The position numbers and the translations under genes were made by a program. This document shows positions 570-5,182 of a stretch of 5,182 nt of DNA, piece by piece. Each line of letters begins with the position of its first letter. The first letter of the stretch is position 1. The stretch comes from a virus. The notes under the pieces were generated by a model, which worked only from the letters and a program-made list of their open reading frames with translations, did no database searches and had not been told where the DNA came from. The stretch lies in the IMG/VR virus record IMGVR_UViG_3300008807_000074, positions 1-5,182 of that record; one strand, given 5' to 3'.

Positions 570-884
570 CTACGCTGCGAATTGAGGCTGGACGGGAGCA
601 AGCTCTTTGAGCGAAGCAGCTTGAGCAACAAGCTTCGGGACATCGTAAGCAGTAACAATACCCGTGCGATGATCATACGAGCCTACCTCATACAGTGCGA
701 AATCGTTGGAATGAGTATTGAACATGTTGCCTTCGCGCGGAGTGTTCACCTCAACGGTAAAACCACGAATAGCCTCATTGGCATTGCGCTGAACAAAGGG
801 GGTATTAAAAGTGTCCCCTACTGCATCACGTACAACATAAAGAAAGTGTGTAGGGACATTAGAATTACTGGATTTATTAAACAT
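570..884 (-). CDS. Conserved gokushovirus small non-structural protein occupying the VP5 (ORF5) position; function unknown
   Basis: ATG at 884..882 with SD AGGAGA (CAGGAGACCTTATG). Stop is TAG at 572..570, 104 aa. The pattern Y-V-V-R-D…F-N-T-P-F…N-E-A-I-R-G-F…D-F-A-L-Y-E-V-G-S-Y-D…T-G resembles a small protein I recall downstream of VP4 in many gokushovirus genomes. Synteny (after VP4, before VP1) agrees. Confidence 0.75.
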   Translation of the reverse strand: MFNKSSNSNVPTHFLYVVRDAVGDTFNTPFVQRNANEAIRGFTVEVNTPREGNMFNTHSNDFALYEVGSYDHRTGIVTAYDVPKLVAQAASLKELAPVQPQFAA

Positions 885-953: not shown

Positions 954-1946
954 TCACAGTAACTTACGGCGTAGGCGCTCTAAAGATGCAATAGCAACCT
1001 GTTCCTTAGACTTCAACCTAAGTGGAGTATTGTCGTCAACAGAAAGTTGCGCTTTTTCCATCCGTTTGTCTTTTATTTCTACGAGAGCATCAGAAAGTGT
1101 GACATCTTCGTAACTAATGATAGCGCCATTTGAAAGCGTTACGGGAACGGAAAACACAGTAGATTCAGAGCGTTCTAGCAGTTTATCATAGTAACGAGGC
1201 ACAGAAACGGGCTTTCCATTAACAATGACATTATCATGGGGAAAGACACTGGCCTTGTATTTTTCAAACCACGAGGCCCCTATTCCCGGCTTCAGGGACA
1301 TTTTATTGAACTCTGGCTGGCGCCAGAAACGATCACCGGTGGATGGATCAACATATTCATAGTGAGTATCAGCTGCATCACCTGTCATTTTTTTCATGAC
1401 ATAACGTGCGACATAAGCAGCAGACTCATAAGTAAGTTCACCGACCGAAGAGAAACCAAAAGGCCATAATTGTTCGAGTATTTTTGAACGATAAATAGCA
1501 GCACCAGAAGGAGTGCGACCATGGTAATCACGATCGGGAAAGTTAAGACCAAAGATACATGCGTGGAAATGAGGTCTACCAAACTGCTCACCATACTCAC
1601 CTGCCATATAGAAACGAATTGTTAAATCAGGAAAGCGCTTACGCAAGCGCTTCATAAATTTTTGAAATTCCTCATAGCGCAGATCAGAGCCTGAATGATG
1701 ACGATTATCGAGCCAAGAGAAGGATGCGAAAGTCAGTGTAATGAAGCAATTATCTTCATGCATTTGAGCTTCATGCATAATGCGAGTTGCCCACTTACGG
1801 GATCGAGTTAGGCGACACCCTACACAACGACCACAAGGAAGTTTTAAGTCAGGATGAATTGAATCACAGACCTTTGCATTATAAGTAAGAACTAGCTTTT
1901 TTTCGGACGGATGACGCCAAGCATCGAGAGGATGGTAGCAGACCAT
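954..1946 (-). CDS. VP4: Replication initiation protein VP4 (HUH rolling-circle endonuclease, Microviridae Rep)
   Basis: 330 aa, ATG at 1946..1944, stop TAA at 956..954. It has the N-terminal MVCYHPLDAW and C-G-R-C-V-G-C-R cysteine cluster. RCR motif 1 is FITLTF, motif 2 (HUH) is RPHFHACIF, and motif 3 is YVARYVMKK with two tyrosines spaced Y-x-x-x-Y. This is the canonical Microviridae Rep layout. Confidence 0.93.
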   Translation of the reverse strand: MVCYHPLDAWRHPSEKKLVLTYNAKVCDSIHPDLKLPCGRCVGCRLTRSRKWATRIMHEAQMHEDNCFITLTFASFSWLDNRHHSGSDLRYEEFQKFMKRLRKRFPDLTIRFYMAGEYGEQFGRPHFHACIFGLNFPDRDYHGRTPSGAAIYRSKILEQLWPFGFSSVGELTYESAAYVARYVMKKMTGDAADTHYEYVDPSTGDRFWRQPEFNKMSLKPGIGASWFEKYKASVFPHDNVIVNGKPVSVPRYYDKLLERSESTVFSVPVTLSNGAIISYEDVTLSDALVEIKDKRMEKAQLSVDDNTPLRLKSKEQVAIASLERLRRKLL

Positions 1947-2041: not shown

Positions 2042-2164
2042 CTAGAGACGAATACCACCACGAACACCGTAGTGAAGATTGACCATTTTTGTACGTGCAG
2101 CATGACGATTGAATTGATGAGTCGAGCTGCGACGATCTACTTTGTGACGAGAAAGAGGCTTCAT
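2042..2164 (-). CDS. 40-aa highly basic DNA-binding/packaging peptide (phiX174 J / gokushovirus VP8-ORF8 analogue); below the length cut-off of the ORF track
   Basis: My own translation is MKPLSRHKVDRRSSTHQFNRHAARTKMVNLHYGVRGGIRL* (ATG 2164..2162, TAG 2044..2042). It has about 10 Arg/Lys plus 5 His in 40 aa and a C-terminal RGGIRL, as I recall from small basic gokushovirus peptides. The translation-initiation region GGAGTTTTTATG (2173..2162) is identical to that of VP1 (159..148). Its position between VP3 and VP4 matches ORF8 of chlamydiaphages. Confidence 0.7.
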   Translation of the reverse strand: MKPLSRHKVDRRSSTHQFNRHAARTKMVNLHYGVRGGIRL

Positions 2165-2197
2165 AAAAACTCCATGTTAAAGTTGAGAGCGGTGTCA

Positions 2198-2234
2198 CCT
2201 GGCACCATTACATCAAGTAGGTAATGGTGCCAGG
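2198..2234 (-). promoter_or_regulatory. Perfect 14-bp stem / 9-nt loop hairpin; candidate viral-strand replication origin (Rep nick site in the loop)
   Basis: cctggcaccattac (2198..2211) pairs perfectly with gtaatggtgccagg (2221..2234). The loop atcaagtag (2212..2220) reads CTACTTGAT on the coding strand. The hairpin is intergenic, between the VP3 stop and the basic-peptide start. Confidence 0.5.
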
Positions 2235-2253
2235 AGGGGGCTAAGCCCCCTCC
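2233..2253 (-). promoter_or_regulatory. GC-rich 9-bp hairpin enclosing the VP3 stop codon and abutting/overlapping the 14-bp hairpin
   Basis: ggagggggc (2233..2241) pairs with gccccctcc (2245..2253). The loop is taa, or 8 bp with a 5-nt loop. The VP3 TAG is at 2243..2241. Bases 2233..2234 are shared with the neighbouring hairpin stem. Confidence 0.45.
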
Positions 2254-2801
2254 CCTCCCCCGGTTGTATCCTGCGCGGGAGACTGAATCACGACAGGCAG
2301 AGGAGTAACCACGGCGGGTTTCTCAAAAAGACCCATCTCAATAAGCTTTTCAGCATTTTTAGGGTCCATAATAAAGTCAACAAAAGCAATAGGGTTATTG
2401 CCGAATTGTGAACGAATACTTTCAGGAAGGTCAGCAAACTGCTGACGAGCTTGAACAGTAATATTCATGATCTCGTGGAACGATTGAGGCATATCAGAGA
2501 AGTCGCCTTGAACAGGCTGACGAGGATTGAGGAACATCGAAATATCCTGCCCTTTGGCATGGCGATCAATGATCCAATTAGGGTCAGACATATCAGTAAA
2601 CTCTTGACGGGTAAGCGAAGGCTCCACGTTAACAGTAGCCGTCAGGTCAGAAACGAAGGCTCCAAAGCCATCATAAGGAGTGCGGCAGAGCGGAAGCTGA
2701 ACAACATCATGTAGCTCCATATAATATTGAACGACATCAGGCGTACGATCATAAAGTTGCGCGATACGAAGGCATTCAGCAGAAAATTCAGTAGTAGACA
2801 T
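2241..2801 (-). CDS. VP3: Internal scaffolding protein VP3 (chlamydiaphage/gokushovirus scaffold family)
   Basis: The preferred start is ATG at 2801..2799 with SD AGGAG (AATAGGAGTTCTCTTATG), 13 nt after the VP2 stop. 186 aa, stop TAG at 2243..2241. The C-terminal half (GDFSDMPQSFHEIMNITVQARQQFADLPESIRSQFGNNPIAFVDFIMDPKNAEKLIEMGLF) matches the conserved VP3 scaffold motif (…F..LP..IR..F.N.P..F..F…) as I recognise it. The track's longer version (to 2933) overlaps VP2 and lacks an SD. Confidence 0.88.
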   Translation of the reverse strand: MSTTEFSAECLRIAQLYDRTPDVVQYYMELHDVVQLPLCRTPYDGFGAFVSDLTATVNVEPSLTRQEFTDMSDPNWIIDRHAKGQDISMFLNPRQPVQGDFSDMPQSFHEIMNITVQARQQFADLPESIRSQFGNNPIAFVDFIMDPKNAEKLIEMGLFEKPAVVTPLPVVIQSPAQDTTGGGEGA

Positions 2802-2814
2802 AAGAGAACTCCTA

Positions 2815-3489
2815 TTATTTAACAAATTTAACGACATTACGAACGGGAAGTTTTGCGGCTTTAGCCGCAGATACTGCAGATGCAGCAGAATGAGCAGCGC
2901 CGGAGGCCTGACCAAGGCCACCAAACAATGCATTCATTTTTTTACCGAAACCTACTGTCCAAGGATGTGATGCATTCCAATCAGCATCACTTTTTGCACC
3001 TAAAGTGTCTTGATTAATTTTAGCAGTAGAAGCGTTAGAAGTAGCGGCATCAGCCAATGCTTTGATACCAAGATTCCGATTAAGAATAATATCAGAATTA
3101 TTTTTAGCAGTTTGACTACGAATTTGATCATTTTGAGCCTGAAGATTGGCAACTTGAGCAGCATTCATTTTAGCAGCCATGGCAGTATGAACAGCAGACC
3201 CAACTGCGTTTTGCATAACGGCCTGCGCACCACTACCTGAAGATGCACCACCATTCGTATATGCAAGCATGGGATTAAGTCCAGCGGCTTTTAAATCAGC
3301 GACAGCGCGTTGATAGGCGGTACCGGTTTGATCAGCTTGAAAGGCGCGATTAGCGTCAGCCTCGGCAGAATTTGCATTATTAGTAAGGACACCACCAAGA
3401 AGATCAAGACCACCAGAGATAAGCGCGGAAGAACCGCCATCACCAAGAAGCGAAGAACCAATTTTAGCGATGCTTGAGAACAGACCCAT
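2815..3489 (-). CDS. VP2: Minor capsid / DNA pilot protein VP2
   Basis: The preferred start is ATG at 3489..3487 with SD GGAGGA (GTGGAGGATACCTATG). 224 aa, stop TAA at 2817..2815. It has a Gly/Ser/Ala-rich N-terminus (MGLFSSIAKIGSSLLG…) and the conserved AYQRAVADLKAAGLNPMLAY block typical of gokushovirus VP2. The position after VP1 agrees. Confidence 0.88.
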   Translation of the reverse strand: MGLFSSIAKIGSSLLGDGGSSALISGGLDLLGGVLTNNANSAEADANRAFQADQTGTAYQRAVADLKAAGLNPMLAYTNGGASSGSGAQAVMQNAVGSAVHTAMAAKMNAAQVANLQAQNDQIRSQTAKNNSDIILNRNLGIKALADAATSNASTAKINQDTLGAKSDADWNASHPWTVGFGKKMNALFGGLGQASGAAHSAASAVSAAKAAKLPVRNVVKFVK

Positions 3490-3586
3490 AGGTATCCTCC
3501 ACAATACGTTTTACATCACGATCAAATTGATCTTTTTTGATAAGACGAGCCTGTTGCTCGGGGGACAAATCTTTAAATTTGGACAT
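3464..3586 (-). CDS. Hypothetical 40-aa charged peptide between VP1 and VP2, overlapping the VP2 start by 26 nt
   Basis: My own translation is MSKFKDLSPEQQARLIKKDQFDRDVKRIVEDTYGSVLKHR* (ATG 3586..3584, TAA 3466..3464). An SD GGAG lies 7 nt upstream (GGAGCTATCCTATG). It fills an otherwise non-coding 154-nt VP1/VP2 spacer. I recognise no homology. Confidence 0.35.
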   Translation of the reverse strand: MSKFKDLSPEQQARLIKKDQFDRDVKRIVEDTYGSVLKHR

Positions 3587-3601: not shown

Positions 3602-3633
3602 CCCCCATTGTTTCCCAAGAGAAACAACGGGGG
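3602..3633 (-). promoter_or_regulatory. 13-bp stem-loop 10 nt downstream of the VP1 stop (possible weak terminator, mRNA-stabilising or ssDNA structural element)
   Basis: cccccattgtttc (3602..3614) pairs with gaaacaacggggg (3621..3633) around a 6-nt loop. The single non-Watson-Crick position is A·C on the + strand but G·U(T) wobble on the - strand, so the stem is continuous only in coding-strand polarity. No U-tract follows it, so it is not a canonical intrinsic terminator. Confidence 0.45.
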
Positions 3634-3643
3634 CCATATAAGG

Positions 3644-5182
3644 TTAGAGACGAGATGAGATGCCCGGGACACTGTAGAGCGGCATTTGACGAGCCATAGT
3701 GACCGAGAACAAACAATCAGCGATAATCTGTTGACCATTGGCAGAAGCACCAACAGCAAGAACACGCGAATGCGGCGGCGTATCCTGAATAAACGTATCG
3801 TTGAGAGCCGGAAGCGAAGCGAATTTTTGAGCAAGATGCCAACCATCGATAGTACCGGCAGCAGTAGAGGTGAAGAGACCGGAGATACGGTTAGGCTTAA
3901 AGCGATATTCAGCCCATGCCTCTTGATATCCAAAAGTAAGGGTATCGTTAGCAGAACCATCGCAATAAATTTCATCATTGCGGACAGCTTTTTCACCCAG
4001 ATTAGCGAGCGCGGGGAAATAGAAGTCATAGCGCGTTAAACGAGTCCACATACGATGGAGACCTTGCTGATAGGTCAGGTCAGCGCGAACGGAACAAAGC
4101 CCAATAATATAACCATGCTCAGTGAAGGATTGCGAGAAGCCAATACCATGATCGACAATAGTACCAATACCCGAAAGGGTACCAAGCGGGGTAGAACCAC
4201 CGGTAACACCGGTTTGAGTGGTTTGAGCGATAGGATTGATATTAATAGGAACAGAGCCACCACCGAGATATTCGGGACGTTGGAGACGAGCGTCGGGTGA
4301 TGTAACACCGAAATGAGCCTTAGTGAGCTCAATGTAGCGAGTACCACCACGAGCATCTAATTCAAGAAGCTCTTGAATCATAATGGATTGACGAAGAACA
4401 TTGAGGGAAACGCCAGTAGAAGCAGACAAATCGGCGAAGAGAGGATTCCCAGTAGGAGCACCAGCATTAAGGAAAGCGCTGCCAGTAGTAAGGGTAGAAA
4501 TAGACATATTGCGCTGGCTACCAGCGCCATCACGAACAGTAACAGCAGTGCTAGGAGTAGAAATAGTAGCCACAGGAGCAGTACCAGCAAGCGGAATAGT
4601 TTGTGTAGAAGCACCTTTTTGCGGCCAAGGCAGACACGAGGTAAAATAGTCATGACGCTTACCGCGGCGGCGAAGAACATAGTTAGCGACAGTATCAGGG
4701 CCATCACCGATATCTATAGTAGGTGAATTTTGTAAGTTTTGATCGCGGAACCACTCTTTATAAATGAGATTGTAGGCACGAAGAGGAAGAGCACTAGCGG
4801 ATTTAGAGTTAGCGCCGCCCATTTGACCGACAGTGATCAGGCCGAAATAGTGTTGAAGAGAGCCGACAGCATAGCCACCGACGGGCGAAACCTGTTGAGG
4901 AATAGTATAAGCAATAGAATCACCGGGATTGTCTTGCTCGCCCATGAATTTTTTCCAGTTTGACCACACAAGGCGAGCCGGAACGAAGAAGTAGAATGTA
5001 TCGAAATAGAGGTTATCCAACAGCGGATAAATAGGCGTAGCCATACGGCCATAAACAGTATGACGAAGATTGTGGTTATCACCCGGCAAAACCTCATCAA
5101 CATAGAACGGAATGAGATAGCCCGAATCAAAAGTAAGAAGATGACGCTGTTCAGCGGTAAATTTACTGCGCGGGATACGCGC
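3644..5182 (-). CDS. VP1: Major capsid protein VP1 (Microviridae F/VP1 family), main body. The ORF is open to the window edge and continues through the repeat into 150..1
   Basis: This is the longest ORF. 5182-3644+1 = 1539 nt = 513 codons, in frame to the window end. The track start at 5089 is an internal TTG, not the real start. Stop is TAA at 3646..3644. Joined across the circular junction the gene is complement(join(3644..5083,1..150)), 529 aa, a size typical of gokushovirus VP1. Sequence character (…LPGDNHNLRHTVYGRMATPIYPLLDNLYFDTFYFFVP…) matches the capsid F/VP1 family as I recognise it. Confidence 0.93.
   Translation of the reverse strand, partial: ARIPRSKFTAEQRHLLTFDSGYLIPFYVDEVLPGDNHNLRHTVYGRMATPIYPLLDNLYFDTFYFFVPARLVWSNWKKFMGEQDNPGDSIAYTIPQQVSPVGGYAVGSLQHYFGLITVGQMGGANSKSASALPLRAYNLIYKEWFRDQNLQNSPTIDIGDGPDTVANYVLRRRGKRHDYFTSCLPWPQKGASTQTIPLAGTAPVATISTPSTAVTVRDGAGSQRNMSISTLTTGSAFLNAGAPTGNPLFADLSASTGVSLNVLRQSIMIQELLELDARGGTRYIELTKAHFGVTSPDARLQRPEYLGGGSVPININPIAQTTQTGVTGGSTPLGTLSGIGTIVDHGIGFSQSFTEHGYIIGLCSVRADLTYQQGLHRMWTRLTRYDFYFPALANLGEKAVRNDEIYCDGSANDTLTFGYQEAWAEYRFKPNRISGLFTSTAAGTIDGWHLAQKFASLPALNDTFIQDTPPHSRVLAVGASANGQQIIADCLFSVTMARQMPLYSVPGISSRL
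5084..5182. repeat. Terminal direct repeat, copy 2 (identical to 1..99)
   Basis: Exact 99/99 match to the window start. The repeat lies inside the capsid ORF and keeps its reading frame, as expected for a circular molecule linearised with redundancy. Confidence 0.97.

Follow-up and report, generated by a model that had tools for sequence, protein, structure and literature searches.

The window, by which we mean the whole 5,182-nt stretch of viral DNA that was analysed, contains a hairpin at 2198-2234 which, together with its flank to about 2191, is probably the site at which the VP4 initiator nicks the viral strand and the (+)-strand origin of rolling-circle replication. The assignment draws on the sequence of the loop, on the kinship of VP4 with protein A of phiX174 and on the conservation of loop, stem and flank among related phages.

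The hairpin and its setting in the genome

Bases 1-99 of the window are repeated exactly at 5084-5182. This 99-nt terminal redundancy is an assembly overlap, and the window therefore represents a complete circular genome of 5,083 nt. By its gene set (Table 1) it is a gokushovirus. The recognisable genes are all on the - strand and, since the packaged strand of the Microviridae has the same polarity as the mRNA, the - strand of the window is the viral strand. The small basic ORF8-like protein also has matches in relatives by tblastn. Between VP5 and VP1 lies an extra ORF of 102 aa (159-467, - strand) with an H-x6-D...H-x-H pattern (SLHYSGRAADL ... DHIHVE). Two LAS-type zinc peptidase families, Peptidase_M15_3 (E 0.033) and the hedgehog N-terminal domain (E 0.03-0.1), match it only below threshold, and its product may be a lysis enzyme. 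With this ORF and another at 467-676 the genome is ~0.5 kb longer than most relatives. The VP1-VP2 intergenic region has an inverted repeat of its own at 3602-3633 (CCCCCATTGTTTC / GAAACAACGGGGG; 13 nt, 92% complementary, 6-nt loop).

The perfect 14-bp inverted repeat of the original prediction is present in the sequence as described: 2198-2211 and 2221-2234 form arms of 14 nt that are 100% complementary and separated by 9 nt, the longest such repeat in the window. Read on the - strand the hairpin is CCTGGCACCATTAC (CTACTTGAT) GTAATGGTGCCAGG, with the loop in brackets, and the layout from the loop onwards is CTACTTGAT GTAATGGTGCCAGG TGACACC, ending at 2191. It is intergenic, starting 7 nt past the VP3 stop codon and ending 33 nt before the start codon of ORF8. 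When the genome was shuffled 200 times with its dinucleotides preserved, perfect stems enclosing a loop of 3-20 nt reached at most 12 bp, compared with the 14 observed, and the region folds with a z-score of -5.3, a value that none of 200 shuffles equalled. A chance hairpin is ruled out by the lack of any 14-bp stem in the 200 shuffles. The element has no match to a known RNA family in Rfam. No family of direct repeats of the iteron type is present beside 2198-2234 in the window; there is instead the single conserved flank GGTGACACC, which may be the Rep binding ('key') sequence.

The heptamer ACTTGAT within the loop had been claimed to be unique on the - strand. It does occur only once in the window, counting both strands, but 0.72 copies are expected and at least one copy is present in 95 of 200 shuffles, so that its uniqueness carries no statistical weight and the argument rests on the comparative data. 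The looser motif CTTGWT occurs 5 times against 6.5 expected.

Table 1. Coordinates of the hairpin, its neighbours and the genes of the window, with the corresponding elements of reference gokushoviruses
Feature	Sequence	Position	Strand	Remarks
Companion GC-rich hairpin	GGAGGGGGCT/AGCCCCCTCC	2233-2253	-	Abuts the origin hairpin; VP3 stop codon in its loop
Hairpin, 5' arm	CCTGGCACCATTAC	2221-2234	-	Perfect complement of 2198-2211
Hairpin, loop	CTACTTGAT	2212-2220	-	9 nt; putative Rep recognition and cleavage core
Hairpin, 3' arm	GTAATGGTGCCAGG	2198-2211	-	Part of the conserved block 3' of the predicted nick
Conserved flank	GGTGACACC	2191-2199	-	Overlaps the base of the stem
Predicted nick	CTACTTG^AT	G2214 / A2213	-	Placed by aligning the loop with phiX174 (cut at G4305/A4306)
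VP1, major capsid protein		3644-5089	-	Crosses the junction; Phage_F 2e-151
VP2, pilot protein		2815-3504	-	
VP3, scaffolding protein		2241-2801	-	Pfam Chlamy_scaf 6e-28; start uncertain (2801, 2837 or 2933)
ORF8-like small basic protein		2042-2164	-	40 aa; phrog_10695 3e-7; first gene 3' of the putative origin
VP4, rolling-circle initiator (HUH)		954-1946	-	Presumed to act on the hairpin; Pfam PF23343 (REP_ORF2-G2P) 7e-20
VP5		570-884	-	
Chp2 element	CTAGCGTATAACAG(TCTACTTGAT)CTGTTATACGCTAG			Between VP3 and ORF8
phiMH2K element	AGTTCGGCTAC(GGACCCTACTTGTTGTAA)GTAGCCGAACT			
SpV4 element	TGGGGCATAT(ATTACTTGTTATA)ATATGCCCCA			
EC6098 element (MT185428, L401)	CCTGGCACAG(CGCCCTACTTGATGTAA)CTGTGCCAGG TGACACC	1683-1726		

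Occurrence and covariation among relatives

A near-identical DNA relative was not found among the GenBank phages, where the only match was of 103 nt in the capsid gene, and loci were therefore gathered through VP4. The first set comprised the 80 closest relatives, IMG/VR contigs whose VP4 is 47-67% identical to that of the window and whose gene order is VP1-VP2-VP3-(ORF8)-VP4-VP5. In 78 of these ACT[TA]GAT is found on the coding strand in a hairpin loop just after VP3, usually as the sole copy on that strand, both exceptions being partial contigs. The VP4 of Chp2 or of phiMH2K, used as a single query, retrieved 2-3 loci each, and hence a query built from aligned VP4 proteins, those of Chp2 and phiMH2K among them, was used to collect a second set of 77 loci. 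A hairpin with a perfect stem and ACT[TA]G in the loop was present in 66 of the 77; the remainder mostly have variant loops that keep CTTG(A/T)T, and a covariance model located copies in several others. A lack of conservation of the hairpin or the loop heptamer in relatives had been named as grounds for rejecting the original prediction, but the comparison gave the opposite result: overall 152 of 160 genomes (~95%) have a hairpin whose loop contains CT[TA]G[AT]T, or has it at the edge, in 82 distinct versions. Of the exceptions, some are partial contigs and the others have a weaker copy, which the covariance model does recover. The element is on the coding strand, once per genome, and its loop ranges from 6 to 22 nt. 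A 46-nt consensus matched 232 GenBank phage records, all of them microviruses and nearly all without a feature annotated under the match.

The reference gokushoviruses Chp2, phiMH2K and SpV4 also have the element, with stems of unrelated sequence (Table 1). In EC6098, a culturable gokushovirus of E. coli, the lower stem and flank are nearly as in the window (CCTGGCAC...GTGCCAGGTGACACC), and the gene order is vp4-vp5-vp3-hairpin-vp1-vp2-vp8. Since this order differs, the constant neighbour of the hairpin across genomes is the end of VP3 and not the start of ORF8 or VP4. In three microviruses with a VP4 of only 26-28% identity (Tortoise microvirus 58, Robinz RP_139 and Bajarodmic virus 7) the element is the strongest hairpin of the genome. 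An alpavirus-like genome (L162, Dulem virus 251, 6.3 kb) has CTACTTGATATTAT...GAGTGACA at 3944-3975 in the intergenic region between the pilot and Rep genes, with a stem of only 4 bp. A search of two distant microviruses, Rhizobium phage RHph_TM1_7A and Bog9017_22, gave no such element.

Some contigs showed irregular arrangements. In L105 (4382-4425) the whole element, including its GGTGACA flank, is inverted with respect to VP4, VP5, VP1 and VP2, and no VP3 was detected on the contig. The inversion may come from misassembly or rearrangement at this place, or L105 may be a genuine exception. Several others, among them L008, L015, L022, L046, L092 and L110, contain multiple genome units and as many as three copies of the origin, with slight differences between the loops, and some multi-unit IMG/VR contigs have inverted VP1/VP2 segments. 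The multi-unit contigs are probably chimeric assemblies of co-occurring strains.

The stem covaries at every pair. In a plain MAFFT alignment of 83 unique elements all 14 of the 14 stem pairs show double-sided changes, in 118 cells, and 78.9% of cells are paired, compared with 25-42% (maximum 41.8%) when the register is slid; none of 500 shuffles reached the observed value in any of the five measures. These pair counts are conservative because a few rows, such as that of Chp2, are in a shifted register. An alignment fitted to the model (105 hits), which leans in the opposite direction, gave double-sided changes at 13 of 13 pairs and in 165 cells, with 83.3% of cells paired against at most 36% in slid registers; here 0 of 500 shuffles reached the values of three measures, and 3 and 13 did so for the two type counts. 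The central pairs of the stem are paired in 97-100%. Applied to the window, the covariance model gave one strong hit, at 2196-2236 on the - strand (49.7 bits), while the palindromic echo on the + strand scored 21 bits, so that it is the loop that makes the element strand-specific. For a negative control, the exact 14-mer TACTTGATGTAACT was sought in viral contigs of up to 7 kb and in contigs of bacterial genomes. The viral matches had a stem of at least 7 bp in 74 of 90 cases and a downstream TGA in 73 of 90, compared with 2 of 120 and 4 of 120 in the bacterial contigs, where the matches were at chance level only and gave no host assignment.

Conservation extends beyond the loop. Among 134 unique 65-mers from the relatives, anchored on CTTG, it spans positions -3 to +27 (~31 nt, CTACTTGATGTAACTGTGCTAGGTGACACC), and the information content is at background on either side. 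The core is CT[T/A]G[A/T]T, T-2 and A-1 are each 93% conserved, and a TGA follows 17-18 nt past CTTG in 127 of the 134; a flank of the GGTGACACC type is also found in EC6098 and Chp2. Conservation is stronger on the 3' side (GATGTAAC...) than in the 5' arm; the 3' side is retained even where the upper stem is unpaired, and the 5' arm merely follows it by complementarity. Judged from these alignments, the conserved unit is larger than the loop and includes the 3' arm and the GGTGACACC flank, and the window conforms exactly to this layout.

A companion hairpin rich in GC adjoins this unit in the window and in many relatives. In 85 of 145 relatives, compared with 15.3 expected, the 70 nt that precede the origin hairpin contain another perfect hairpin, with a stem of at least 7 bp. 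Those of the relatives (L002-L063 and other loci) are in the same place but are unrelated in sequence and have compensatory changes of their own, for example AGCAGCT, AGCCACT or AGGCGCT around a constant loop. The companion may function as a terminator, stabilise an RNA or act as a complementary-strand origin.

The hairpin as a candidate (+)-strand origin

phiX174 and G4 (Bullavirinae) belong to the same virus family as the gokushoviruses, and the initiators are homologous. VP4 contains GRPHFHACIF and AAYVARYVMKK, in agreement with the HUH motif and the two-tyrosine YVARY arrangement that had been read from the window, and matches phiX174 protein A in BLASTP with an E value of 1e-6. The aligned motifs of VP4 and protein A are FITLT/FDTLT, EYG..GRPHFHA/GRLHFHA, LWPFGFS/TWPYGYS and YVARYVMKK/YVAKYVNKK, and both HxH and Y-x3-Y are invariant across 9 gokushovirus VP4 proteins. 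The phiX174 record has its rep_origin at 4306 within CAACTTGATATTAATAACACTATAGACCAC (surrounding sequence CCCCCAACTTGATATTAATAACACTATAGACCAC). Comparison with this record upheld the predicted match, eight of the nine loop bases of the window being identical to phiX174 CAACTTGAT, and the shared core, C(T/A)ACTTG^AT, is on the viral coding-sense strand in both. It is mainly because a homologous enzyme with the same catalytic layout is found with the same core on the same strand that the loop is read as a cleavage site. In a saturation-mutagenesis preprint on phiX174, Tyr343 and Tyr347 are given as the catalytic residues, cleavage and religation are placed at G4305/A4306 within the 30-nt ori(+), and synonymous changes were detrimental over codons Q107-D115 (CAA CTT GAT ATT AAT AAC ACT ATA GAC).

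From these likenesses we infer the position of the nick (G2214|A2213), binding by VP4 and a function as both origin and terminator of replication. The inverted repeat would extrude or breathe in the supercoiled replicative form, which would leave the loop of the viral strand, CTACTTGAT, single-stranded, and VP4, as an HUH protein with two catalytic tyrosines like phiX174 protein A, would bind the 3' arm and the GGTGACACC flank. One of the tyrosines would cut between G2214 and A2213 and keep a link to the 5' phosphate, and the 3' OH would be extended by a host polymerase. After one round the second tyrosine would cut the regenerated hairpin, and the displaced strand would be ligated into a circle that is then converted to the replicative form or packaged. 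Reviews of rolling-circle replication describe an initiator that acts at a 'bind' locus and a 'nick' locus, the latter as a rule being exposed as ssDNA where the supercoiled origin forms a hairpin or cruciform. Against the origin reading stand the difference in architecture from phiX174, which has the only characterised origin of the Microviridae, the failure to find the element in the two distant microviruses and its inverted orientation in L105.

An intergenic, strand-specific and strongly folded element could also serve as the complementary-strand (-) origin, where host primase, RNA polymerase or PriA would prime synthesis at a hairpin of the SSB-coated viral ssDNA. Replicons of ssDNA need such a site in the form of a viral-strand hairpin, and that of phiX174 is bound by PriA and intergenic. 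However, such sites are read by the host machinery alone, yet the same loop core is found in phages of Chlamydia, Bdellovibrio, Spiroplasma and E. coli, an invariance that would point to a reader encoded by the virus rather than by the host. The loop, moreover, matches the (+) origin of phiX174 and not its (-) origin, and the adjacent GC-rich hairpin, with its variable sequence, is the better candidate for this role. It would therefore seem unlikely that the hairpin at 2198-2234 is a (-) origin.

The reader of the conserved loop could equally be another conserved viral protein, and the element might be bound without being cleaved, as a packaging or procapsid-docking signal or as an operator for VP4, VP5 or ORF8. 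A conserved loop and flank with a covarying stem would fit any site recognised by a protein through sequence and structure, and genes for small DNA-binding proteins adjoin the element in many genomes. This would, however, leave unexplained why the core of the loop is the cleavage core of the homologous phiX174 system; there is also no second conserved candidate for the nick site, the motif usually being unique on the coding strand. In addition, phiX174 is not known to need a packaging signal besides its origin. A site that is bound and left intact is thus quite improbable.

Since the hairpin comes directly after the VP3 stop codon and would also fold in a polycistronic mRNA, it might be a transcription terminator, or an element for mRNA processing or stability, that separates VP1-VP3 from the downstream genes; hairpin terminators are present in intergenic regions of phiX174 (phiX174 preprint). 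A run of at least 6 T in the 10 nt past the stem is nevertheless found in 0 of 152 relatives, and a terminator scan of the window did not return the site. At 6-22 nt the loops are large, and their sequence is conserved, which a terminator does not require; the Rfam search gave no match. In EC6098 the hairpin is followed by VP1, so the element does not mark a constant boundary of expression. On these grounds we consider this explanation very improbable.

Some gokushoviruses integrate through a phage dif that is partly palindromic and non-coding, but a dif-like XerC/XerD recombination site for lysogeny is refuted by EC6098, where the dif motif (1-28) and the hairpin (1683-1726) are separate elements; dif is in addition a 28-bp site with 11-bp arms and a 6-bp spacer and is rare outside the enterogokushoviruses, whereas the element has spacers of 6-22 nt (9 here) and is nearly universal, and phages without dif still infected their hosts and persisted as circles (EC6098 paper).

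The (+)-origin reading would make the mechanism a conventional one, and the element appears to be undocumented for a very large group of phages. A literature search found no description of an origin or hairpin in gokushoviruses, and neither is mentioned in the EC6098 paper, Roux 2012, Labonte and Suttle 2013, Krupovic and Forterre 2011, Kirchberger 2022 or the PhiCA82 paper; an early remark in the original reports of SpV4 (1987), Chp2 (2000) or phiMH2K (2002) is possible. Gokushoviruses are among the most abundant ssDNA phages of gut, marine and soil viromes. A defined origin would give their genomes a natural zero coordinate and the family a DNA marker, the covariance model giving one hit per genome, would allow minimal replicons or phagemids to be made for the study of replication and packaging, and would explain how Rep specificity is kept across hosts. 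E. coli supports both the growth of EC6098 and its reconstruction from PCR products (EC6098 paper), and since this phage carries the element the hypothesis is directly testable.

Comparison with known origins

The 30-nt ori(+) of phiX174, CAACTTG^ATATTAATAACACTATAGAC, and the block of ~31 nt in the window are colinear. In phiX174 a GAC stands at the same spacing as the gokushovirus TGA(C), 18-20 nt past the cut, although identity in this right half amounts to only 3-4 bases (the GAC at equal spacing) and could be due to chance, and the spacer between core and GAC is unrelated in the two groups. The presentation of the site also differs: the phiX174 origin is part of gene A and is not bordered by an inverted repeat (best stem 1 bp), whereas in the window the site is intergenic, between VP3 and ORF8, and the core is in the loop of a 14-bp hairpin. 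The L162 site, CTACTTGATATTATATGTAGGAGTGACA, has 11 consecutive bases (ACTTGATATTA) in common with the phiX174 origin and a TGAC flank, and may be intermediate between forms with and without a hairpin.

Taken together, we put at about even the chance that the element is a near-universal origin module of the Gokushovirinae and neighbouring lineages, and that all Microviridae share one ancestral origin with two modes of presentation. The module would consist of ~31 nt, YTACTTG^AT ... GGTGAC, displayed by the loop and 3' arm of a hairpin that can be extruded, usually accompanied by a second, sequence-variable GC-rich hairpin. The two modes, an intergenic hairpin and a site without a hairpin embedded in the Rep gene, would both have evolved from the ancestral origin.

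As in the CRESS-DNA viruses (geminivirus, circovirus, nanovirus), the element is intergenic and has a covarying stem, a conserved loop and an HUH Rep. The predicted cut between positions 7 and 8 of the 9-nt loop presumably has the same geometry as that of the CRESS nonanucleotide. The loop CTACTTGAT itself does not match this nonanucleotide, TAATATT^AC / TAGTATT^AC (consensus NANTATTAC), no iterons of the CRESS type are found beside the stem in the window, and the CRESS Rep is of another HUH family with one tyrosine, compared with two in VP4.

In the double-strand origins of the rolling-circle plasmids pC194/pUB110 (Rep_1), pMV158 (Rep_2) and pT181 the nick site is likewise in the loop of a hairpin or cruciform, with a Rep binding site adjacent to it. 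The nick sequence of the pC194 family, CTTG^ATA, we take to be the same core as that of the window loop. These are plasmid replicons, however, and their initiators differ from VP4, the Rep of pT181 being of a different fold family and that of pC194 having Tyr plus Glu instead of two Tyr (review). A defined gokushovirus origin would connect the phiX174 model with the hairpin origins known from plasmids and CRESS-DNA viruses.
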